Assembly (NCBI GenBank): GCA_025060635.1
Contig: JANXBN010000001.1
Location: forward strand, 565,284 to 629,283
Length of the DNA stretch: 64,000 bases
Reading direction: 5' to 3'
Source: Candidatus Kryptonium sp.
GTDB taxonomy: Bacteria > Bacteroidota > Ignavibacteria > Kryptoniales > Kryptoniaceae
The notes below the pieces were generated by a model that saw only the letters and a program-made list of their open reading frames with translations, searched no databases and was not told where the DNA came from. The position numbers and the translations under genes were made by a program. This document shows positions 11,185 through 55,515 of the stretch, in pieces (position 1 is the stretch's first letter; the number at the start of each line of letters is the position of its first letter).

Positions 11185-11910
11185 TTAATTAATTCCAGCC
11201 CATTTCTTGACAATTTCTGCAACAATAGGATTCATAAGCGTTAAAACTATGATGACGAGAATTATCAGGAAGTTTAATTTTAAGTTCAACCTGTCTATTT
11301 CGGATTTGAGTTCTGTCTTTACTGTTTGCAGTTCAGCTCTAACGTTTTCAATTTTTGCATCAAGTTCAGCTCTTACGGTTTGCAGTTCGGCTCTAACGCT
11401 TTCAATTTTTGTATCAAGTTCAGCTCTCGTAGATTGCAATTCGGACCTTACACTTTCAATTTGCCTTTCAAGCTCGTTTTTGGTGGTTTTCAATTCAGCT
11501 CTAACGCTTTCAATTTTTGCATCAAGTTCAGCTCTTGCGGTTTGCAGTTCAGCTCTAACACTTTCAATTTTTGCATCAAGTTCAGCTCTCGTAGATTGCA
11601 ATTCAGATCTTACATTTTCAATTTGTCTTTCAAGATCTATTCTCGTGTTTTGTAGTTCAACTCTTACATTTTCAATTCTACTTTCAAGTTCGGTTCGCAC
11701 TAACACGACATCTGCTTTGCTTGCGAGCTCTTTTGTTAACTCATCTTTGAGTTCAAATTTTTTCTCAATTCCGATAGTTTCAGCTCTATGTTTCATCTCA
11801 TTGATGAAATCCTCAATCATCTTGGTTATTTCAACCGCTTCATCTCTTCCGAACTTCTTCTCAAGTTTTTCATACAAGCTAAAAGGAACGCTCATTAATA
11901 TCCTCCCCAA
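11185..11910 (-). CDS. DUF1640/CCDC90-like membrane-anchored coiled-coil protein
   Basis: Short helical head, LASKADV neck motif, long coiled-coil stalk, C-terminal TM helix. Confidence 0.75.
   Translation of the reverse strand: MGRILMSVPFSLYEKLEKKFGRDEAVEITKMIEDFINEMKHRAETIGIEKKFELKDELTKELASKADVVLVRTELESRIENVRVELQNTRIDLERQIENVRSELQSTRAELDAKIESVRAELQTARAELDAKIESVRAELKTTKNELERQIESVRSELQSTRAELDTKIESVRAELQTVRAELDAKIENVRAELQTVKTELKSEIDRLNLKLNFLIILVIIVLTLMNPIVAEIVKKWAGIN
11299..11676 (-). repeat. Seven tandem 54-bp (18-aa) repeats, consensus IESVRAELQT.RAELDAK
   Basis: Residues 79-204 of the 11185..11910 protein; near-identical DNA units visible (e.g. ttcaatttttgcatcaagttcagctct). Confidence 0.92.
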
Positions 11911-16360: not shown

Positions 16361-16972
16361 TCACTTTGATCTTCTTCCTTTTATAAACGCTTGGCGTATG
16401 TATTCTTTGTCATAGAAGTAATAAGAAAGTCCAAGTTTCAAGGCAATGAAGCCGTCTTTATCTTTTGTCGTTGGATCTCCATCAAGATCGCCCTTTGTTG
16501 TGAGATTATACGAGGCAGAAAAATCAACTGACAAGAAATGTTTCACATACATATTCAATCCAAGCCCAAATCCAGCAGTTGCTGTGTTCCGACCCATATA
16601 ATTGCTTATGTTCGGTTGATAATGAATTATCCCGCCAGAAATGAAGAAATAGACATCTGACTTGCTTCTTGGAACAATGTGAAATTCACTTTGCAATTCA
16701 CCAGATATTATCGTAGTCCAATTCTTTAAGTTTGTATTTTTATCTTTAAATCCAACCCATCCTCCTGAAAATTTGCCAACGATTGAGAGAAAATCAAAAA
16801 CTCCTAATCTTACTTTCGCATTTCCGATTGATTGAATATCTGGTTTTGATTGACCTTGAAAAATTGAAATTCCAGCATCAGCGCCAAAGCCAAATTTACC
16901 AGGTAAAGTTTGAGGCAGCAAGGAGTTAGTAACGATAATTAGCAAGATTATAAGCGAAAAGGCTTTTCGCAT
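16361..16972 (-). CDS. Outer-membrane beta-barrel protein
   Basis: Signal peptide, alternating beta strands, aromatic-rich last strand (LGLSYYF). Confidence 0.7.
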   Translation of the reverse strand: MRKAFSLIILLIIVTNSLLPQTLPGKFGFGADAGISIFQGQSKPDIQSIGNAKVRLGVFDFLSIVGKFSGGWVGFKDKNTNLKNWTTIISGELQSEFHIVPRSKSDVYFFISGGIIHYQPNISNYMGRNTATAGFGLGLNMYVKHFLSVDFSASYNLTTKGDLDGDPTTKDKDGFIALKLGLSYYFYDKEYIRQAFIKGRRSK

Positions 16973-20046: not shown

Positions 20047-21576
20047 CTAAACTCGGGAGGCGAGATGATTATGAGCGAGCGACTTTATTCTTGATTTTAC
20101 AGCTTCGTCTGCTGGATTGCGCTCAAGAAGTACTTCATAACACTGAAGGGCTTTGTGAATATCACCTGCGCCTATGTAAGATAAAGCAAGAACTTTAATA
20201 GCATCATTAAAAAATGGAGATTCTTTGAGGTTCAAAAATTCTTTCAAAACATCAATTGCCTCGTTGAATTTTCTTAAACCAACAAGGCAAGTTCCGAGGT
20301 TGTATTTTATTTCGTCATCGTCCTTAAATTCAAGAGCGAATTTCAAAGTTTTAACTGCATTTTCAAGATCACCCTCAATTTGTTGAATTCCAGCAAGTAT
20401 CTTAAAAACATCAAATGATGGTTTAACCTCCGCAATATATTTTATGATCTGCACAGCGTTTTTGTTTAGCGATTTGTATTCAGCGACAAGGAAATCAAGT
20501 GCCAATTTATAAAATTTTTCACTTGTCAATATCCGCAAAATATACTTTTTTGAGTTTTGAAAGTTCCCGAGTTTAAAGTAGCATATCATCAAGTTAAACA
20601 TTATAAGTTCGGGTTCAATGAAATTTTCAAGTGCTGTTTCAAGAGGTTTGCCTTTGGATAAAGCGTATAAATTTTTGAGCGCTTTTTCAAGGAAGTTTTT
20701 TGCAAATATGAAGTTTGATTGTTTCATATGCGCAAGTCCAGCGGAAAAATAAGCTCCTACTTGATGTGGCGCAATTTTTATTGATTTGACAAAATAGTTG
20801 AGCCCCTGCGATATATTACCTTTTTGAATTTCATATTCGCCGAGAGTGTGGTAAATGACAGCTCCAAGAGAATCACTTAAGTTGGAAATTTCCCGTGGAA
20901 TCTGAATTGATCTTTTTAGATATTCAATCCCTTCATCTTTTTCTCCTTTTAAGATCTTCGTGATACCAATATGATAACATGTGTAAGCATTGTTTGGATT
21001 TTGTTTAAATTGGTCAAGCAAAATTTGCAAGTTCCTTTCATATTTTTTGTTCATTATTTCATCGCTTTGACCATAGCCAAGATGAGTAATTGTTATATCT
21101 GTCTTTGCTAGTTTCCCGCCACTTCTTAAAATTGATGGTGATATCTGTTCATGTATTTTGCCCTCAAATTTGAATTCATCTTTCCTTCTAAATAATCTCG
21201 GATACTCATTTATTACGGAGGGTTTGCCTTCTTTGTCAAGATTTATAACTCGGACATAGAGGCCATCAAAATTTAAATTGATATATTTCTTTATCTTTTT
21301 TTCCTGTCCTTGATTTAATCGTTCATCTGCGTCAAGGACTAAAATCCAATCACCAGTTGCGTGTTTTATTGATTCATTTCTTGCAGATGCGAAGTCGTTT
21401 TCCCATTTAAAAGAAAAAACCTTAGCATTGTAAGAACGAGCGATATCAATCGTTCTATCGGTTGAACCTGTGTCAACTATGATTATCTCATCAACTATAT
21501 TTTTCACGCTTTCTAAACATTCTGGGAGAAATTTTTCCTCATTTTTAACAATCATGCAAAGTGAAATTTTGGGCAT
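20047..21576 (-). CDS. GT2 glycosyltransferase with TPR repeats (probable flagellin glycosyltransferase)
   Basis: ISLCMIVKNEE, DTGSTD, DFASARN, LDADE, GKIHEQ; TPR C-terminus; divergent from fliC. Confidence 0.88.
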   Translation of the reverse strand: MPKISLCMIVKNEEKFLPECLESVKNIVDEIIIVDTGSTDRTIDIARSYNAKVFSFKWENDFASARNESIKHATGDWILVLDADERLNQGQEKKIKKYINLNFDGLYVRVINLDKEGKPSVINEYPRLFRRKDEFKFEGKIHEQISPSILRSGGKLAKTDITITHLGYGQSDEIMNKKYERNLQILLDQFKQNPNNAYTCYHIGITKILKGEKDEGIEYLKRSIQIPREISNLSDSLGAVIYHTLGEYEIQKGNISQGLNYFVKSIKIAPHQVGAYFSAGLAHMKQSNFIFAKNFLEKALKNLYALSKGKPLETALENFIEPELIMFNLMICYFKLGNFQNSKKYILRILTSEKFYKLALDFLVAEYKSLNKNAVQIIKYIAEVKPSFDVFKILAGIQQIEGDLENAVKTLKFALEFKDDDEIKYNLGTCLVGLRKFNEAIDVLKEFLNLKESPFFNDAIKVLALSYIGAGDIHKALQCYEVLLERNPADEAVKSRIKSLAHNHLASRV

Positions 21577-21610
21577 TTGTGAGGTTCAAGTTTTCTTTTC
21601 TTAATAAGAT

Positions 21611-21637
21611 TTATCGGAATAATTTGGAGACTCTTTA
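21611..21637 (-). promoter_or_regulatory. sigma-28 promoter for the GT2-TPR gene
   Basis: Minus strand TAAA(21637-21634)-N15-TCCGATAA(21618-21611). Confidence 0.75.
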
Positions 21638-21674: not shown

Positions 21675-21702
21675 TAAAGTAACTCGGGATTGAATCCGAT
21701 AA
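21675..21702 (+). promoter_or_regulatory. sigma-28 promoter for fliC
   Basis: TAAA(21675-21678)-N16-TCCGATAA(21695-21702). Confidence 0.8.
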
Positions 21703-21715
21703 ATAAAAGTGAAAT

Positions 21716-21768
21716 GTCAGGGCAAGGAAGCCCTGACGAATGTAAAACAAACAAAAAACAAGGAGGTT
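21716..21768 (+). promoter_or_regulatory. CsrA/RsmA-type sites in the fliC leader
   Basis: 8-bp hairpin GTCAGGGC-AAGGAA-GCCCTGAC with GGA in the loop, plus CAAGGAGG overlapping the SD. Confidence 0.7.
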
Positions 21769-21775
21769 ATAAGCC

Positions 21776-25147: not shown

Positions 25148-25396
25148 ATGAGGATAAATGAAATAAGCGGAAAAATACCGCTGCCTGAAGAGAACAGCGG
25201 GCGGAAAACGCAAAAAACGGAGGAGAAGAAAGATAAAATTGAGATTTCAAGTGAAGCAAGGGAAATCTATAGATTGAAAAGAGCGGAAAGAATTGAAGAA
25301 GTTAAAAAGAAGATTGAAACGGGCTTTTATAACTCTGATGATGTGATTGATAAAGTCGCAGAGAAAGTATACAGTCTATTTAAAATAGGCAAGTAG
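25148..25396 (+). CDS. flgM: Anti-sigma-28 factor FlgM
   Basis: DKIEISSEA, RAERIEEVKKKIETGFY...D..VAEK. Confidence 0.88.
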   Translation: MRINEISGKIPLPEENSGRKTQKTEEKKDKIEISSEAREIYRLKRAERIEEVKKKIETGFYNSDDVIDKVAEKVYSLFKIGK

Positions 25397-25446
25397 ATCC
25401 CGTGATCTATCAACCATAGCACCTCCCCCCGCCGTAGTTCAGTGGT

Positions 25447-25479
25447 AAAAAAACCCGAACTGTGTGTTCGGGTTTTTTT
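25447..25479. terminator. Bidirectional intrinsic terminator after flgM
   Basis: AAAAAAACCCGAAC-tgtgt-GTTCGGGTTTTTTT. Confidence 0.9.
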
Positions 25480-25556
25480 GTTTTGTTTGAAATTTTAAAT
25501 TATTCCATCTATATTTTTACTGGTTTAGCAAAACGCAACAAATTTTTGATCTTAAA

Positions 25557-31434: not shown

Positions 31435-31865
31435 AGAAATTTCGTTTCAAGTCCGATATCGCAAGCTTCCCATCCAATATTTCATCTTTGAAAAAGTTTG
31501 AAAAATTTCTTGAGAGATTGAAGAAAAAACATAAAATTTCTGATGAAGATTTTTATAGAATTTCTCTCGCTTCAAGTGAGGCTTTTATAAATGCAATTGT
31601 CCACGGTAATAAGCTTGATTCTTCCAAAAAGGTAACCGTTAAGTTCAGAGCTTTTAAAAAAAGTTTTGAAATTGAAATTCAAGATGAGGGCGAGGGATTT
31701 AAAACTACCATTTTTTTAGATCCAACATCAGCGGAGAATTTGCTTAAAGAGTCCGGCCGTGGAATTTATATCATGAAATCTTTTTCTGATGCTGTAAAAT
31801 TTTACAAAACTAAAAAGGGTTTCAAAGTAAAAATAAAAATAAAAAAGCGATCGGGCGTCCCTTGA
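31431..31865 (+). CDS. rsbW: Anti-sigma factor / Ser kinase (RsbW/SpoIIAB-like)
   Basis: SEAFINAIVHGN, IQDEGEGF, ESGRGIYIM. Confidence 0.85.
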   Translation: MKKFRFKSDIASFPSNISSLKKFEKFLERLKKKHKISDEDFYRISLASSEAFINAIVHGNKLDSSKKVTVKFRAFKKSFEIEIQDEGEGFKTTIFLDPTSAENLLKESGRGIYIMKSFSDAVKFYKTKKGFKVKIKIKKRSGVP

Positions 31866-31882
31866 GGGATCGCCCAATCGCC
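31841..31882 (-). terminator. Strong intrinsic terminator (16-bp stem, one bulge, U6)
   Basis: GGCGATTGGGCG-A-TCCC-TCAA-GGGA-CGCCCGATCGC-TTTTTT on the minus strand. Confidence 0.85.
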
Positions 31883-31971
31883 AACGGAGGTGCTACGGCG
31901 GGGTATCAATCTAAAGAACGACATTTCATAAAAGTGCTTGTCAAAGTGCTTATTCAGGTGCATCTCTCAAT
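31841..31971 (-). ncRNA. Candidate sigma-54-dependent small RNA (~130 nt)
   Basis: Promoter and terminator bracket a region with no plausible ORF; four GCACYT repeats; C-rich segment just before the terminator. Confidence 0.6.
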
Positions 31972-31981
31972 TAAAAACTTA

Positions 31982-31998
31982 TGCAAATACTATGCCAA
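31982..31998 (-). promoter_or_regulatory. sigma-54 (-24/-12) promoter
   Basis: Minus strand TTGGCATAGTATTTGCA = GG-N10-GC, matching TGGCAC-N5-TTGCA. Confidence 0.75.
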
Positions 31999-32096
31999 AT
32001 CAAATTTGCCGTGTTTGTTAAAATTTCAATAAATTTTTAGCGAATTTTTATAAGTTAAAAGTCATAATTTTGGACAAAAAGTGACAAATTTGACCA

Positions 32097-49888: not shown

Positions 49889-51060
49889 TGATTAAAAATC
49901 CAACTGAAATTTTTGTTTATCTCGTTTTATTAATTTTCGCAATATACAAAGCAAGCCAGATAAAATTTTTATCAAAGTTTTTCAGATACTTGCCACCAGT
50001 TATTTGGGTTTATTTCCTTCCGATGCTTTCATCGGCGTTAGGGTTGATCCCGCGTGAGTCTGAATTTTATACTTGGGCGAGAACTTACCTTTTACCATCT
50101 GCTCTCGTTTTGCTTTTGCTTTCTGCAAATATACCAGTTATAATGAAGCTTGGTCTCAAAGCAATAGTTATGTTTTTGACTGGTTCATTCGGTATAATCA
50201 TTGGAGGTCCGATAGTTTTGTTAATTTTTGAGCGCTGGTTACCTCCTGATGCGTGGAAGGGTTTGGGAGCTTTATCTGGGAGTTGGATGGGTGGAAGTGC
50301 AACGATGCTTGCCATAGCACAAAGCATTGGGACTCCTGAGTCATTGCTTGCTCCCTTAATAGTTGTTGATACCGTCGTTGGATATGGATGGATGGGGATT
50401 GTGATATTTTTGTCAGCATATCAAGACAAGGTGGACGAATTCAATCGCGTTGATAAAGCGATTCTAGTGGAGTTAAACAAAAGAATGCAAGAAGTAAAGG
50501 AATCAAAGCGAAGATTTTTGAGTTTTATTGATTTCGCAACAATGATTTCTATTTCGTTCGTAATTGGAATTATATCTTTAAAGATGGGTTCTATCTTACC
50601 AGAGATTGGAGTAATAATATCTCACTATACTTGGGGAATTATAATCGCAACCGCTATTGGTGTTGTTTTGTCTTTTACAAAGTTGTCGGAGCTTGAGCAT
50701 TCTGGCTCAACCCATGTTGGAAATTTCATGCTATATCTTTTGCTCGCATCGGTTGGTGCAAGAGCAAATATCTATGGAATTTTTGAAACCCCCATTTTCA
50801 TGCTTGTTGGGATCGTTTGGATAATGATCCATGCTATATGTTTGTTTGTGGTTGGAAGATTGATAAAAGCGCCAATGTTCTTAATGGCAACAAGTAGCCA
50901 AGCAAACATAGGCGGACCAGTTACAGCTCCAATTGTTGCATCAGTTTATCAAAGTGCTCTTGCACCGGTTGGACTTCTAATGGCTGTAGCTGGAAATATC
51001 ATTGGAATTTACGGCGGTCTTTTATGTTCGCAACTTTGCTACATAGTGTCAAGATTCTAA
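49885..51060 (+). CDS. DUF819 family membrane protein
   Basis: L.GSW.GG...M.A, S.ANIGGP.TAP.VA, about 11 TM helices. Confidence 0.85.
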   Translation: MMIKNPTEIFVYLVLLIFAIYKASQIKFLSKFFRYLPPVIWVYFLPMLSSALGLIPRESEFYTWARTYLLPSALVLLLLSANIPVIMKLGLKAIVMFLTGSFGIIIGGPIVLLIFERWLPPDAWKGLGALSGSWMGGSATMLAIAQSIGTPESLLAPLIVVDTVVGYGWMGIVIFLSAYQDKVDEFNRVDKAILVELNKRMQEVKESKRRFLSFIDFATMISISFVIGIISLKMGSILPEIGVIISHYTWGIIIATAIGVVLSFTKLSELEHSGSTHVGNFMLYLLLASVGARANIYGIFETPIFMLVGIVWIMIHAICLFVVGRLIKAPMFLMATSSQANIGGPVTAPIVASVYQSALAPVGLLMAVAGNIIGIYGGLLCSQLCYIVSRF

Positions 51061-51576
51061 TTCTTGTGGATCAATTTTACAAAGCAAAAACTTATGAATA
51101 TCCGCCTTTACTTGATAATCCATTGAGATAAGCATAACAATCGCCCTTGTATTGTTAATTTTTTCAATTATCCCAATAAATCCTTTTAGTGGTCCGTTTA
51201 TTACAACGACATAGTCACCTGGCCGAAGTTCTGAATCAGTTTCAGGTTTATCAGGTATATAGATGTGATTGTTCCAGTTCACTCTTTCTTTTATTTCTTC
51301 TATTATTGTTTCTTTTATTGGCTTTGGTTTTCCGTTGACTCCTAAGATTTTTCTTACCCCCCGTGTGTATATTACAAGATCAAACAAACTCGGTTTTAAT
51401 TTTGCAAATACGTAATTTGGAAATAACGGGACGATAACTTTTTTTCTTTTTTCTTTAACTATGCGAATTTCTTGAATTTTGGGATTGAAAACCTCAATGT
51501 TTGCAGAATTTAAATATAATTCAACGAGATTTTCTTGTTTTGGTTTAGTCTGCAAGACGTACCAACTTAAATCCAT
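51049..51576 (-). CDS. NusG paralogue, RfaH-like transcription antiterminator (start ATG 51576 or GTG 51597)
   Basis: WYVLQTKPKQE, PLFPNYVF, TRGVRKIL (NGN domain); GDYVVVINGPLKGF.G (KOW domain). Confidence 0.85.
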   Translation of the reverse strand: MDLSWYVLQTKPKQENLVELYLNSANIEVFNPKIQEIRIVKEKRKKVIVPLFPNYVFAKLKPSLFDLVIYTRGVRKILGVNGKPKPIKETIIEEIKERVNWNNHIYIPDKPETDSELRPGDYVVVINGPLKGFIGIIEKINNTRAIVMLISMDYQVKADIHKFLLCKIDPQELES

Positions 51577-51716
51577 CTTTTTAAGAGCACCTCCCACTCG
51601 TAATTTGTTTTTAAAAGAAAAAAGAATCCATTACTAAATTTTAAAAAATTGCCCCGCCGTAATGTTAATAGGGTTTAAGATGATTAATTCAAAAATGTAA
51701 CTCTTCTTTTTCGCCC

Positions 51717-54038
51717 TTAGCTTTTATCTCTATCAGCCCCGTAGTAATCGTAATATCTATAGTACCGATAGTATCTATAATATGTTCCATAGGTTGCGCT
51801 TGCATCAAAGTTATTTAGAAGAACACCAATTACATTTCCTCCCACGCGATGAATCATTTCTCTTGCTTTATCAACGACATCAATTTCTGTCTTTCCAGCT
51901 GATGCTACAAGCAAAACTCCATCAACCTGATTTGCAAGTATTAAAGCGTCTGTTACGGCAACAAGCGGTGGCGTATCAAAGATGATGAAATCATAGTTTA
52001 ATTTAAGGTATTCAATAAATTCTTTCATCTTCTCAGAACCAAGAAGCTCGGATGGATTCGGAGGAACAACTCCACATGGAACTAAATAAAGATTATCAAC
52101 ATCAGTTTGTTTGAAAATTGTATCAATTTCTGCTCTTCCAAATAAATAATCTGTAAGTCCTGGCTCTCTTTTTACACTAAAAACTCTATGAAGAACTGGG
52201 CGCCTTAGGTCTGTATCAAGTAGAACTGTTTTCAAATCTGCTTTAGCCATTGTAATTGCAAGATTTGAAGCTGTAGTTGATTTTCCTTCTTTTGGCGCAC
52301 TGCTTGCAACAATGATTGATTTAATTTTTCTATCAAGTTTAGCAAATTGTATCCCTGTTCTTAAAACTCTATATGCTTCAGCAACTGGTGATTTAGGGCT
52401 TAAGTGGGTTATTAGGTGAGCGGCGATATTTCTACCTTCATCTTTTTTAAGTTGCTTTCCATCAAGTTTAGTTTCAATTTCAATGATGGGTATCGCTGAA
52501 AGAACTGTAAACCCTTTCTTTTCGAGCTGTTCGGGGGTTTTTACCGATCTGTCAAAGAATTCTCTTATAAAAACAATTCCAACTCCAAGTCCAAGTCCAA
52601 TTATAACACTTAAAATTAAATTTAAATGAACTTTCGGACTTACTGGTTTTGGTTCGGGAGTTGCATAATCAATTATTTGAACATAGCCAAACTGTGACTG
52701 TTCAGCAATCATTGCCTCTTGATATTTTTCCTCAATTAAAAGATATAATTTTTCGCTACTCATCCTTGCACGCTCAAGTCGTGCGTAGTCGATCAGTTTT
52801 GAGGGTATTGTTTCAAACTTTTGGTTTAGCTGTGCGATTAATTTATCAAGTTCCTTTTTCTTTGCTTCATAGGCTGTTAATTCAATTTCCGTTAAGAGAA
52901 TTTTTTGCTTTAATTCTTTTACGAACCCAGTTGGATCATAAGTTTGGGTGCCTGGCGTTCCTGAACTTGCAAAACCCGTTTTTAAGAACTCAGATATTTT
53001 TTCTTGCAGCTTCTTTCTCAATGAGGCTAGTTGTTCATCTATTTCACGAAGACTTTTATCTAAAACTTCTTTGCTTCCAACTTTTGGATTTTGCGCAACA
53101 ATTTGGTCTCTCGTCACCTCAAGCTTTGCGATTTCCTCTTGCAAGTATTTGATATAAGGATCAAGCGCTTCTGTTGCAACTTTTACAAATTCAGGTTCAA
53201 TTTGCTTTATTTGTTCAAGATATGCATTTAATTTTTTCTGGGCTGTAGAAATTTCAACAATTGCTTCCCCGCGCTTTGATTCTAAATCAGAAAGCTGCTC
53301 TATTAATTTTCTTGATTCTTCATCAAGGGCGACAACCCCAGCGGATTTCATATATGTTTCAAGTTGACTTTCGGCTTGATCAAGTATTTTCTTCTTGTCT
53401 GCGAGTTGTTCCTCAAGAAACTTTCTCACGCTTCTTGATTCATTTCTGCTCATCAAAAGATTTCGTTCATAGTAAGCGTCCGCAAAAGTATTGGCAATTA
53501 AAGCTGCTTCTTTAGGATTTTTGCTTCTTGCTGTGATTTTTATTATATCTGCATCGCGCGGTGATTCAACTTTGACATTTTTTTCAAACCTTTCAAGTAT
53601 CGTTTCTATGCTTGCGAAGGGTTTTATTCCTTCCCTAAGATCTTTACGAGATGGAAGTATTACGAGAATCGTATCTTTTTTATTCTCTGGATCAATATAA
53701 ACTCTGTTAATTAGCTTCTTTGCAACTGCTTCAGCAAGAGAACGGCTTTTCAGTATCTCAATTTCATTTTTTATGTTTCTTTGTTCCGATAAACCCGTAA
53801 TGTCAAATGCTTCACTTAAGCCAAGTCCTTTTTTACCCTTCTCTATCAAGATAACAGCGGTTGATTCATAAATTGGATCTTGCATAAATGTAAAAATTGC
53901 TGTTGCTAATACAACAAGAATAAAAACAAGAATTATAAGCCACTTACCCCTGTAAAGAACTTGTATGACTTCATATAAATTTATTGTTTCCTCCTCAGGC
54001 TGAAAAAAAGGTTGCCCATTAGTACCTAATTTTTCCAT
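51717..54038 (-). CDS. wzc: Wzc-type polysaccharide co-polymerase / BY tyrosine kinase
   Basis: Two TM helices, periplasmic coiled coil, P.SP, EAYR.LRT, Walker A EGKST, DTDLRRP, FDTPP, Tyr-rich tail. Confidence 0.93.
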   Translation of the reverse strand: MEKLGTNGQPFFQPEEETINLYEVIQVLYRGKWLIILVFILVVLATAIFTFMQDPIYESTAVILIEKGKKGLGLSEAFDITGLSEQRNIKNEIEILKSRSLAEAVAKKLINRVYIDPENKKDTILVILPSRKDLREGIKPFASIETILERFEKNVKVESPRDADIIKITARSKNPKEAALIANTFADAYYERNLLMSRNESRSVRKFLEEQLADKKKILDQAESQLETYMKSAGVVALDEESRKLIEQLSDLESKRGEAIVEISTAQKKLNAYLEQIKQIEPEFVKVATEALDPYIKYLQEEIAKLEVTRDQIVAQNPKVGSKEVLDKSLREIDEQLASLRKKLQEKISEFLKTGFASSGTPGTQTYDPTGFVKELKQKILLTEIELTAYEAKKKELDKLIAQLNQKFETIPSKLIDYARLERARMSSEKLYLLIEEKYQEAMIAEQSQFGYVQIIDYATPEPKPVSPKVHLNLILSVIIGLGLGVGIVFIREFFDRSVKTPEQLEKKGFTVLSAIPIIEIETKLDGKQLKKDEGRNIAAHLITHLSPKSPVAEAYRVLRTGIQFAKLDRKIKSIIVASSAPKEGKSTTASNLAITMAKADLKTVLLDTDLRRPVLHRVFSVKREPGLTDYLFGRAEIDTIFKQTDVDNLYLVPCGVVPPNPSELLGSEKMKEFIEYLKLNYDFIIFDTPPLVAVTDALILANQVDGVLLVASAGKTEIDVVDKAREMIHRVGGNVIGVLLNNFDASATYGTYYRYYRYYRYYDYYGADRDKS

Positions 54039-54089
54039 GATGTTAAGAACAAAATTTGTTTTTTACCCGTGAACTAACAATTCATCTTC

Positions 54090-54118
54090 AATATAAAAAT
54101 TCAAACAATAAAAGTCAA
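54090..54118 (-). promoter_or_regulatory. sigma-70 promoter for wzc
   Basis: Minus strand TTGACT(54118-54113)-N17-TATATT(54095-54090). Confidence 0.65.
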
Positions 54119-54258
54119 GCTTTATCTGTGTGATGTGGATTACAGACTTAAAATTTATTGTATAATAATCCACACCATTTGTTTAATATTAGCCATTTGC
54201 TCTTAAAACTTGTGGCTTTAGGTAACTTAAAGATTTGAAAATTGCAAGAGCATATTAA

Positions 54259-54274
54259 TGGCACAGGGTTTGAA
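54259..54274 (+). promoter_or_regulatory. Probable sigma-54 promoter for the flhF operon (variant -12)
   Basis: TGGCAC-AGGGT-TTGAA; perfect -24 element, GA instead of GC at -12. Confidence 0.55.
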
Positions 54275-54321
54275 TATAACTAAATCTGGAAAAGTTTAAA
54301 CAAAAAGAATGCTGAAGTCTG

Positions 54322-55515
54322 ATGAAAATTAAAAAGTTTGTAGCACCAACATTGAAAGAAGCTACTGAGATGATGAAGAAAGAATTCGGGGATGACGCCA
54401 TAATTCTCGGAACGAGAAGAATTAAGCAACCTGGAATTTGGGGTTTTTTGAAACCGGAGTTAATTGAAATTGTTGGGGCAATAGAAGAGAATAGATTTCA
54501 AGAATCAAGAGTTGCTTCATACGAAGCTCCGAAAAATACGGTTGATTTGCTGCGAAGAATGACCGAAGAAATTGAAACAAAACAAAGGAGATTAGATGAA
54601 GACGAAAAAAATGAGGTTTTTGAAAAATATAACTATAGCATAATTAAAAGCGATCTTGAGGAGGTAAAGCAAGCACTAAATCAAATAACAGAACATCTAA
54701 AATATAGAAATTCAATTCAATATCCCCCTCTTTTGAAAAAAGCCTTTGTGAACCTCTTGGAAAAAGAGGTTGATGAAGATTTAGCTAATAAGATTGTGCG
54801 CACTGTTCTTACAAAATTAAGCGGAGAGGAATTAAAGAGCGAGAAAATAATTGAAAATGAGATAATAAATGTGATAGCTGACATTATTAAGTTTTCAAAA
54901 CCTGTAAAGCCGATCCGAAGGAAAAGCTTTGTGCTTGCCTTTGTTGGACCAACAGGGGTTGGGAAAACAACAACGGTTGCAAAGTTAGCTGCTATCTATA
55001 AATTGTTTGAAAATGCCAAAGTTGCATTGATATCAGCAGATACCTACCGAATAGCAGCAATTGAGCAGCTTCAAACCTTTGCCAACATCGCTAATATTCC
55101 AATGGATGTCGCTTATACACCAGAAGATATTGCAAGAATCATCCGAAAACATCAGGATAAAGACATAATTCTTATTGATACCGTTGGAAGAAATCAGAGA
55201 CAAACTGAGCATATCTCTGAACTTGCAAAATTTATAAAGAGCGCTGATCCAGATGAAGTTCACTTGGTTTTAAGTGCAACATCAAGTTACAAAAATATGA
55301 TAGATGTTTATAATAGATTTAAAGCCTTGGTGCCGAACCGATTGATATTTTCTAAAGTTGACGAGGCTGTTAGTTTAGGTTACATTCTTAATATCGCCTA
55401 TAAAACTAAACTACCCCTTTCATATATCACGACGGGACAAAATGTTCCAGATGATATAGCTGTTGCTGAACCTAAAGTAGTAGCAAACTTAATTTATAAG
55501 GAAGTTTTGCTATGA
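54322..55515 (+). CDS. flhF: Flagellar biosynthesis GTPase FlhF
   Basis: MKIKKF.A....EA...MK.EFG.DAII, GPTGVGKTTT.AKLAA, DTYRIAA.EQL, DTVG, KVDE, TGQNVPDDI. Confidence 0.96.
   Translation: MKIKKFVAPTLKEATEMMKKEFGDDAIILGTRRIKQPGIWGFLKPELIEIVGAIEENRFQESRVASYEAPKNTVDLLRRMTEEIETKQRRLDEDEKNEVFEKYNYSIIKSDLEEVKQALNQITEHLKYRNSIQYPPLLKKAFVNLLEKEVDEDLANKIVRTVLTKLSGEELKSEKIIENEIINVIADIIKFSKPVKPIRRKSFVLAFVGPTGVGKTTTVAKLAAIYKLFENAKVALISADTYRIAAIEQLQTFANIANIPMDVAYTPEDIARIIRKHQDKDIILIDTVGRNQRQTEHISELAKFIKSADPDEVHLVLSATSSYKNMIDVYNRFKALVPNRLIFSKVDEAVSLGYILNIAYKTKLPLSYITTGQNVPDDIAVAEPKVVANLIYKEVLL

Follow-up and report, generated by a model that had tools for sequence, protein, structure and literature searches.

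A 64,000-nt stretch of DNA from Candidatus Kryptonium sp. (hereafter the window; 36% G+C) carries the gene for a small RNA (sRNA) that is conserved among the Kryptonia, uncultivated thermophiles of hot springs. An invariant segment of this sRNA is complementary to two boxes in the leader of a gene for a specialised NusG paralogue, one of which is an unusually strong Shine-Dalgarno (SD) sequence. The balance of the evidence tips towards the sRNA pairing with this leader, and repressing the NusG paralogue by covering its SD. The complementarity was noticed in a first-pass annotation of the window's letters, which proposed a system of three sites, at which two flagellar-regulon RNAs would pair with the leader of an RfaH-like antiterminator. 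The exact copies from which that system was assembled are real, and the complementarity between the sRNA and the leader is conserved across species; the three sites are nevertheless unequal, as one of the two boxes at the third is specific to a single species.

Two short boxes at three intergenic sites

Exact copies of the first box, Y (CCCCGCCGTA), lie at 25427-25436 (+), 31894-31903 (-) and 51652-51661 (+), against 0.03 expected by shuffling; those of the second, X (AGCACCTCC), lie at 25418-25426 (+), 31886-31894 (-) and 51586-51594 (+), against 0.21 expected. In neither case did any of 100 shuffles reach three copies. The boxes are co-located at every site in the window, and all of the sites are intergenic: (a) is the leader of the NusG paralogue, (b) the 3' untranslated region (UTR) of flgM, and (c) the sRNA gene. 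The first-pass annotation had reported both boxes at three intergenic sites each, and its positions and strands were confirmed, with copy counts beyond those of the shuffles. Allowing one mismatch in X gave no enrichment (7 found against 5.3 expected), and therefore the signal consists of the exact copies and their co-location with Y. A chance origin of this set of boxes is excluded. The transcribed strand carries the boxes at (b) and (c), in both cases just 5' of a terminator, and at (c) they share one base (CCCCGCCGT-A-GCACCTCC); at (a) it is the minus-strand mRNA that carries their complements.

Boxes were counted in approximately 327 kb of Kryptonia sequence, comprising the 64 kb window and approximately 263 kb of other loci, from genomes of roughly 2.5 Mb. 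Within this sample, the 8-mer core was found at the three types of site and in two more places (L087:13174 and L187:4284, of unmapped open reading frame (ORF) context). Hence the abundant repeat that the first-pass annotation had named as a possible refutation is not seen across these ~327 kb, the extent to which the count applies. It is highly improbable that strand is irrelevant, with the boxes serving as double-stranded DNA sites of a single regulator or being what remains of a small repeat. The boxes do face either way with respect to the genes around them, with an order and spacing that vary by site, as such an origin would permit. However, one DNA-binding protein would hardly recognise layouts that are variously adjacent, permuted and separated by 57 bp. 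Furthermore, two of the three sites close a transcription unit, each lying just 5' of its terminator; (c) is inside the conserved body of an sRNA; the Y box of (b) is absent from the sister species; and the ~327 kb contain only the two uninspected core occurrences beyond the three site types.

A conserved sRNA and its complementarity to a NusG-paralogue leader

The features of site (c) are:

31841-31971 (-): sRNA gene of ~130 nt, its 5' end inferred from the position of the promoter
31983-31997 (-): sigma-54-type promoter of the sRNA, TGGCAT-N5-TTGC, an exact match to TGGCAY-N5-TTGC
31932-31961 (-): upstream repeats, GCACCU at 31956-31961 and GCACUU at 31944-31949 and 31932-31937
31886-31903 (-): seed CCCCGCCGUAGCACCUCC, with the Y box at 31894-31903 and the X box at 31886-31894
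31847-31882 (-): terminator hairpin of the sRNA, followed by a U tract

The comparison with relatives identifies site (c) as a genuine, conserved sRNA gene. It is situated between an RsbW-like gene and an NFACT gene, and 11 Kryptonia lineages share its promoter, body and terminator (the window and L120, L164, L149, L125, L162, L177, L109, L178, L204 and L205), which bears out the earlier suggestion of a candidate sRNA with a sigma-54 promoter. The promoter of the window has GG at -24 and GC at -12 with the fixed spacing; in the relatives TGGCAC-N4-TTTG(C/A/T) stands in the same place, such that GC at -12 is not universal. No inverted repeat in common with the region upstream of flhF was recognised that could be the site of a bacterial enhancer-binding protein activating the sRNA promoter. 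No conserved ORF was found in the sRNA, as the reading frame is broken by indels between species; hence, in silico, it has the properties of an independent transcription unit, with its own promoter, an intrinsic terminator and no ORF. Rfam contains no family that matches it: only three tRNAs reach gathering scores in the window, and the three sites give weak, sub-threshold matches that are mostly driven by terminators.

The seed belongs to a 25-nt segment near the 3' end, CCCGCCGTAGCACCTCCGTTGGCGA (RNA form CCCGCCGUAGCACCUCCGUUGGCGA), of which every column is invariant across nine aligned species and two loci fetched by a protein anchor. The seed has no variant among four metagenome strains. 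The consensus fold from RNAalifold leaves a 17-nt segment largely unpaired, with two predicted pairs, and the seed is therefore predicted to be accessible as well as conserved. The same fold has 15 stem pairs in the terminator, four of them with compensatory changes, and the single-sequence z-score of the terminator is -3.25. The unstructured 5' part carries two to five copies of (R)GCACCU per relative in the 11 lineages, and a conserved CGUUCUUU(U)AGA separates this repeat-bearing body from the 25-nt segment. As the repeats are GCACCU, with no GGA array on the sRNA strand, the RNA does not resemble a sponge of the CsrB/RsmZ type.

Scanning the 17-mer CCCGCCGTAGCACCTCC against one genome per species returned 83 matches. 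Eight were Kryptonia genomes, in all of which, as in the window, the 17-mer has the same setting of promoter, repeats, segment and terminator; the other low-GC matches are without sRNA-like flanks, and the high-GC ones were not inspected. Two further loci were retrieved independently of the 17-mer, through NFACT homologues of 73% and 70% identity, and both had the same promoter and the same invariant segment. Hence the invariance is no artefact of searching with the 17-mer. An NFACT outgroup (40% identity) has a different neighbourhood and no such RNA. As far as these searches extend, the sRNA family is confined to the class Kryptonia. Its promoter is of the same type as that of flhF; this aside, nothing links the sRNA to the flagellar regulon. 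Two minor observations concern this locus. A -7 box of the Bacteroidota type, TAATTTTG (32065-32072), belongs to the adjacent NFACT gene. The sRNA segment CCGCCGUAGCACC (31886-31903, -) loosely resembles the 16S decoding-region strand CGCCCGUCACACC at 9 of 13 positions, which we take to be probably a coincidence.

The complements of the boxes lie at site (a), for which the features are:

51049-51576 (-): specialised NusG paralogue (UpxY/RfaH-like), 175 aa; Pfam NusG NGN domain 4e-19, KOW domain 1.2e-8
51577-51716 (-): leader of 140 nt, between a Wzc-like gene and the NusG paralogue
51679-51687 (-): TAATCA box, 5' of the Y complement, found in 10 of 10 leaders
51652-51661 (-): mRNA box UACGGCGGGG, complement of the Y box
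51586-51594 (-): mRNA box GGAGGUGCU, an SD with a GCU extension, complement of the X box

The homologues of the paralogue all begin MDL(S/N)WYV, which places the true start codon at the ATG of 51576, rather than at the mechanically listed GTG of 51597; therefore GGAGGUG lies 11 nt upstream of the AUG. Leaders from six species genomes and seven metagenome contigs gave ten distinct sequences. These are AT-rich and poorly alignable outside a common architecture, in which TAATCA is followed after 17-22 nt by ACGGCGGG, after a further 51-63 nt by GGUG, and 6-12 nt later by the start codon. The box ACGGCGGG, in mRNA sense, is exact in seven of the ten, differs by one base (ACGGCAGG) in two (L001 and L201) and is absent from one (L003); where present, it precedes the start codon by 74-85 nt, and the 17-22 nt between TAATCA and the box hold in all nine. 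GAGGUG is found in nine leaders, with AAGGUG in L003. Hence complementarity to the sRNA is conserved across species at the ribosome-binding site (RBS) as well as at the upstream box. Six of the ten extend the SD with GC(U/A), giving GGAGGUGC(U/A), which matches the sRNA. The usual 16S 3' tail would favour GAUC after GGAGGUG, such that this extension would be expected to mismatch the rRNA of Kryptonia.

In other Bacteroidota, translation starts mostly without SD pairing. Strong SDs are likewise rare in the window, where most genes have A-rich leaders (AAAAUAAA) and GGAGGUG is one of the few exceptions. The strong SDs listed in the window are those of flagellin, fliA, an aldehyde dehydrogenase, the ORF at 16361-16972 and the NusG paralogue; SDs also occur at flgM and fliD, among others. 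Such rarity would make an anti-SD seed selective. Scanning found no terminator-like site in 50900-54400 and, within the leader, nothing resembling a sigma-70 site, which makes it plausible that a wzc-nusG mRNA includes the upstream box.

The predicted duplex of the sRNA has an energy of -22.4 kcal/mol with the complement of the Y box and -18.4 kcal/mol with the SD box. Targets were ranked by short-seed scoring of both boxes, summing the duplex energies of the two seed halves. The leader of the paralogue was first among the 5' regions of the window, as the first-pass annotation had anticipated, at -40.8 kcal/mol against -28.1 (64 genes) or -30.6 kcal/mol (78 ORFs) for the runner-up. This is to be expected, as the site was found by its complementarity. 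That explanation does not extend to L001, L002 and L004, in each of which the leader was also first when scored with its own genome's sRNA. A ranking by RNAduplex over long sequences was replaced by the two-box scoring, as its background energies were too high to be informative. Within the ~327 kb, the box occurs in mRNA sense 5' of a gene only in the leader of the paralogue. In the clade of the window and DT_Bin_37, and in no other, the helix is longer: the C run of the sRNA (CCCCGCCG) has a fourth base, and so does the G run of the leader (…GGGG / …AGGG-C). One metagenome strain, X6, reads U for C in the mRNA sense of the leader box, and a G-U pair is thereby retained. Among the same strains neither the sRNA seed nor either flgM box varies, although their flanks show up to eight differences. 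The conservation of the leader complement in most Kryptonia lineages is support that the first-pass annotation, made from one sequence, could not have had.

From these sequence facts, their conservation, and the promoter and terminator signatures, we infer that the RNA accumulates, pairs with the leader in vivo and represses translation. A trans-acting sRNA of ~130 nt would be transcribed from the sigma-54-type promoter, and its single-stranded 3' segment, CCC(C)GCCGUA-GCACCUCC, just 5' of the terminator, would pair with the two separate boxes of the leader. The box ACGGCGGG(G), ~80 nt 5' of the start codon, would be the specificity anchor; the second box, the SD GGAGGUG(CU), would be covered, such that 30S binding is blocked and less antiterminator is made. 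For one sRNA to hold both boxes, a 56-nt linker must span a combined helix of 19 bp, which seems sterically feasible by its length. The upstream GCACCU repeats could add contacts with AGGUGC-type sequences. Conservation thus supports an RNA pairing that represses the antiterminator for sites (c) and (a).

Exceptions to the pairing and alternative explanations

Several points weigh against this mechanism. Firstly, the sRNA segment never varies, and hence classical compensatory covariation cannot be scored. Secondly, the ACGGCAGG leaders (L001 and L201) put an A opposite a C, for which the sRNA of DT_Bin_37 (L120) does not compensate; the L201 leader reads ACGGCAGGC, and a matching, compensated sRNA box would read CCUGCCGU. 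Thirdly, binchicken_co30_42 keeps the sRNA box (L109) and has a leader (L003) without the complement. Fourthly, the order of the boxes in the sRNA (Y-X) is permuted relative to the leader and, if the promoter of the paralogue lies 3' of the upstream box, then the box would be missing from some transcripts. Finally, the search for other targets covered ~327 kb of the roughly 2.5-Mb genomes, and the searches for sequencing runs found DNA metagenomes only, and no RNA run with the organism. The invariance that persists in binchicken_co30_42, and beside an uncompensated G-to-A leader, indicates that the sRNA box is held by more than this target. The first-pass annotation had proposed looking to relatives for conservation and for compensatory changes; the boxes of (c) and (a) are indeed conserved in most lineages, and the picture for the latter is mixed, with an invariant seed, one clade-specific extension of the helix, one strain variant that preserves a G-U pair and two G-to-A leaders, uncompensated in DT_Bin_37.

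Candidates for an additional target fared poorly. The pairing of the sRNA with the RBS of fliA (UACGGAGGG in the window) is a match that is not conserved in L002 or L004, and the flhF and fliA regions of L003 and L006, as alternative targets where the leader box was lost, gave weak, bulged matches only.

The leader also contains elements that the sRNA does not explain, namely the TAATCA box and an A/T palindrome that immediately follows the ACGGCGGG box in several lineages (51634-51651, -, in the window). Together with ACGGCGGG, these might form a cis-acting element recognised by a protein, either for loading of the paralogue or as the site of a transcription factor, with the sRNA having its main targets elsewhere and its complementarity to the leader being secondary or coincidental. 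We judge this to be unlikely. The ops element that RfaH recognises on the non-template strand contains GGCGG, and the leader box presumably shares this GGCGG with the ops sequence of Escherichia coli. Protein recognition would also account for the tight spacing of 17-22 nt between TAATCA and the box, and for the fixed orientation of the box wherever it is present; for the same G-to-A change (ACGGCAGG) having arisen twice, uncompensated in the DT_Bin_37 sRNA; and for the loss of the box from L003, in a genome whose sRNA keeps its complement. The leader in front of upxY is, furthermore, where UpxY proteins act (PMC7819879). However, such an element leaves unexplained why the invariant sRNA segment is complementary to both the box and the adjacent SD, and by a simple count a conserved 8-mer would match the single-stranded part of the sRNA by chance with a probability of ~1e-3. 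Nor was any terminator found in the leader, or any same-strand gene 3' of the paralogue, in the window or K. thompsonii, on which an antiterminator could act, and the change in strain X6 preserves a G-U pair.

Other interpretations of the leader were considered and set aside. The 'AAAATAAA' in the leader was read as a Bacteroidota-type -7 promoter box, but the same A-rich element precedes many genes internal to operons, and hence belongs to the usual ribosome-binding region. A conserved upstream ORF from the mid-leader (A/G)TGGA motif failed because this motif is in some leaders only. A conserved hairpin sequestering the SD was likewise not supported, as the fold z-score is -1.1 and its CUUAAA/UUUAAG complement is absent from the L002 leader. 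The Y box is not a sigma-28 -10 element, as the sites offer no -35 partner for it and the sigma-28 promoter of Kryptonia reads TAAAGT-N15-CCGATAA.

The GCACCU repeats raise a different question. The usual 16S rRNA 3' tail contains CACCUCC, which the three to five GCACCU(CC) units of the sRNA resemble. Hence the sRNA could be a multi-copy mimic of the anti-SD, or a sponge, which acts broadly on SD-bearing mRNAs or titrates an RNA-binding protein, with the NusG leader as one client. The conservation of the array, at two to five copies in 11 lineages, is consistent with this, as are the retention of only the anti-SD box in the flgM 3' UTR across species, the rarity of SDs in the window, where they are found at flagellin, fliA, flgM, fliD and the NusG paralogue, among others, and the invariance of the sRNA box even where the leader complement is lost (L003/L109). 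Yet the non-SD box CCCGCCGU is equally invariant, and has a conserved complement in one type of leader only; AGGUGC, the complement of GCACCU, occurs at an RBS only in the NusG-paralogue leader within the ~327 kb; the match of the sRNA to the fliA SD is not conserved; and the lack of GGA motifs argues against a CsrB-type sponge. As the main role of the sRNA this seems quite unlikely. A broader variant, improbable enough that we offer it as speculation, is that the few strong-SD mRNAs form a separately controllable class, gated by the sRNA, with its three to five anti-SD mimics, and the flgM 3' UTR as decoys; the CCCGCCGU box would then give priority to the NusG leader, coupling flagellar state to a polysaccharide programme controlled by antitermination.

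The flgM 3' UTR, gene neighbourhood and relation to known systems

The features of site (b) and its transcript are:

21675-21702 (+): sigma-28 promoter TAAAGT-N15-CCGATAA, 5' of the flagellin gene, conserved in 6 related loci
25148-25396 (+): flgM, last gene of the fliC-fliS-fliD-flaG-orf121-flgM operon; Pfam FlgM 28.7 bits, cut-off 25
25418-25437 (+): flgM 3' UTR boxes AGCACCUCC-CCCCGCCGUAG
25444-25482 (+): intrinsic terminator of the flgM operon, from the terminator scan

The canonical sigma-28 promoter upstream of the flagellin gene puts (b) at the 3' end of a sigma-28 transcript. All relatives whose contigs were retrieved with FlgM homologues (L185-L195) retain the X part, AGCACC(U)CCCC, between the flgM stop codon and the terminator, at a distance of 20-30 nt from the former. 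The conserved element across species is AGCACCUCCCC, that is, the AGCACCUCC(CC) box only. The Y part, CCCCGCCGTA, is restricted to the window's species, represented by L194, whose FlgM is 98% identical; at 92% FlgM identity, a relative has CCCCAACCATAG in its place, and more distant ones have unrelated sequence, with replacements in L192/L193, L185, L188, L190 and L195. Both boxes are invariant in four strains, the flanks of which vary. Several strains have linked changes in the terminator, at 25453 (A to C) and 25473 (T to G), consistent with a compensatory change in the stem.

Hence the three-site symmetry is specific to the window's species, and what extends to the relatives is an anti-SD element within the flgM 3' UTR. 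In the proposed mechanism, the sigma-28 fliC-flgM operon would carry the same anti-SD box (AGCACCUCCCC) as the sRNA in all Kryptonia examined, and the second box would have been acquired in the window's species only, making possible a collinear pairing with the same leader in which 56 nt are bulged out. A symmetric system of three sites, acting as a switch between motility and exopolysaccharide (EPS), would go beyond the conserved pairing of (c) with (a). Just 3' of the flgM terminator, AATTATTCCATCTATATTTTTAC (25498-25520, +) is kept in several species despite a differing downstream gene, and may be a promoter.

The protein encoded downstream of leader (a) has the NGN and KOW domains of the NusG family. 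Specialised NusG paralogues, such as RfaH, UpxY and LoaP, are master switches for capsules, toxins and antibiotics. The NCBIfam scores, in bits against the cut-off, are 95.5/100 for UpxY, 89.3/144.5 for RfaH, 56.8/125 for LoaP and 55.4/135.7 for NusG, and thus none of these four curated cut-offs is reached. The first-pass annotation had named the target RfaH-like; a specialised paralogue it is, scoring best as UpxY and then RfaH, with both below their cut-offs. By these scores, the best label is an unclassified specialised NusG paralogue, nearest to UpxY.

Directly upstream is the gene:

51717-54038 (-): Wzc-like polysaccharide co-polymerase/tyrosine autokinase, with Pfam Wzz, GNVR and P-loop domains

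This protein scores 214 bits, above the cut-off, for the NCBIfam tyrosine autokinase domain TIGR01007, and its gene is probably co-transcribed with the paralogue. The divergent arrangement of flhF and wzc-nusG is matched by ORFs of the same size and order in L002 and L004, without domain annotation there, and ORFs like flhF-flhG-fliA, divergent from wzc-nusG, recur by size and order in Kryptonium and Chrysopegis. The promoter shared in type with the sRNA is TGGCAC-N4-TTTGA at 54259-54273 (+), upstream of flhF-flhG-fliA, and is conserved in five species, including L002, L003, L004 and L006. Together the promoter type and gene arrangement fit a link to motility, and do not in themselves demonstrate one. 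Approximately 100 bp 5' of the flhF promoter, an inverted repeat, GTGGATTA (54135) ... TAATCCAC (54166), could be an activator site.

The only feature suggesting that the paralogue has a role in EPS or capsule is its Wzc-like neighbour, through which the sRNA would have a motility-versus-polysaccharide output. A polysaccharide operon 3' of the paralogue was sought in Chrysopegis, where the genes encode ATP-grasp, GNAT and radical-SAM enzymes that are not clearly for polysaccharide. A ManC-like protein, used as a synteny anchor, returned distant Ignavibacteria and other phyla only, and was uninformative on Kryptonia.

The closest parallel in organisation is in Campylobacter jejuni, in which FlmE (CJnc230) is an RpoN-dependent and FlmR (CJnc170) a FliA-dependent flagellar sRNA, and FlmE directly represses translation of its target mRNAs (PMC11187230). 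As in that pair, one Kryptonia RNA has a sigma-54-type promoter and the other lies on a sigma-28 transcript; however, processing of the flgE mRNA gives rise to FlmE (PMC11187230), in contrast to the separate promoter and terminator of the Kryptonia sRNA. The C. jejuni targets are flgM and a flagella-interaction regulator (PMC11187230), rather than a NusG paralogue, and FlmE and FlmR oppose each other, whereas both Kryptonia RNAs would act on the same leader. There is no sequence relationship between the two systems, and the Kryptonia sRNA is a putative member of the flagellar regulon. In E. coli, the sigma-28-dependent sRNAs UhpU, MotR, FliX and FlgO are derived from the UTRs of flagellar operons, the source proposed here for the flgM 3' UTR element; those RNAs act on flagellar and ribosomal-protein mRNAs (PMC10578931), whereas a separate RNA from the Kryptonia flgM 3' UTR is putative.

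With the Qrr sRNAs of Vibrio, the Kryptonia sRNA shares a sigma-54-type promoter and a long invariant segment, without homology (no Rfam match). The Qrr sRNAs are sigma-54-dependent RNAs of ~100 nt, with a long invariant segment that base-pairs with the mRNAs of master regulators; they are multi-copy, and depend on Hfq and LuxO. In Staphylococcus aureus, RsaE/RoxS has C-rich motifs, and a UCCCC motif in the icaR 3' UTR pairs with the SD of its own mRNA. These are similarly repeated, C-rich, anti-SD-like motifs that occlude G-rich RBSs, and the icaR 3' UTR element parallels AGCACCUCCCC after flgM; they differ in phylum and sequence, and the Kryptonia sRNA adds a non-SD anchor box ~55 nt 5' of the SD. 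The paralogue resembles UpxY, RfaH and LoaP in having NGN and KOW domains, with its best scores for UpxY and RfaH, and a polysaccharide-export gene as neighbour (PMC7819879). It differs in scoring below every curated cut-off, and in following a Wzc-like gene instead of heading a long operon. None of these known systems is homologous to the Kryptonia sRNA system.

The Kryptonia are not known to have any described regulatory RNA: a full-text literature search for 'Kryptonia' with 'small RNA' found no paper, and literature searches found no report of sRNA control of specialised NusG paralogues (RfaH, UpxY, LoaP). Judged by sequence comparison, this sRNA family is new, whereas its probable mechanism, occlusion of an RBS, is of a known kind, with a plausible and unusual target. 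The locus offers a well-defined, phylogenetically supported sRNA family with a specific and testable target. If the pairing is true, then it adds a regulatory layer to the family of specialised NusG paralogues, and provides an example of how rare strong SDs might serve SD-poor bacteria as regulatory handles. The logic of motility versus polysaccharide is a familiar theme, and the concept itself is not new.

Other observations in the window concern the flagellin locus and two repeats. In the 5' UTR of flagellin, a conserved hairpin, GUCAGGGC-AAGGAAG-CCCUGAC (21716-21737), has GGA in its loop, and a second AAGGAGG overlaps the flagellin SD (21760-21770); the hairpin and the two-site layout are conserved in six related loci. 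CsrA represses flagellin through such a two-site layout in Bacillus and Campylobacter. A possible second, divergent sigma-28 -10 element, CCGATAAA (21603-21624, -), faces a glycosyltransferase-TPR gene (20047-21576) with a possible role in the glycosylation of flagellin. Four copies of the 11- to 12-mer GAAGCAAGGGA(A) lie at 544 (-), 14381 (+), 25253 (+) and 59489 (+), of which at least three are within ORF coordinates, one in flgM; they may encode a common peptide motif or be fortuitous. Within a 241-aa, coiled-coil-like ORF (11185-11910, -), six copies of AGAGCTGAACT(TG) at 11330-11590 point to a repetitive protein.

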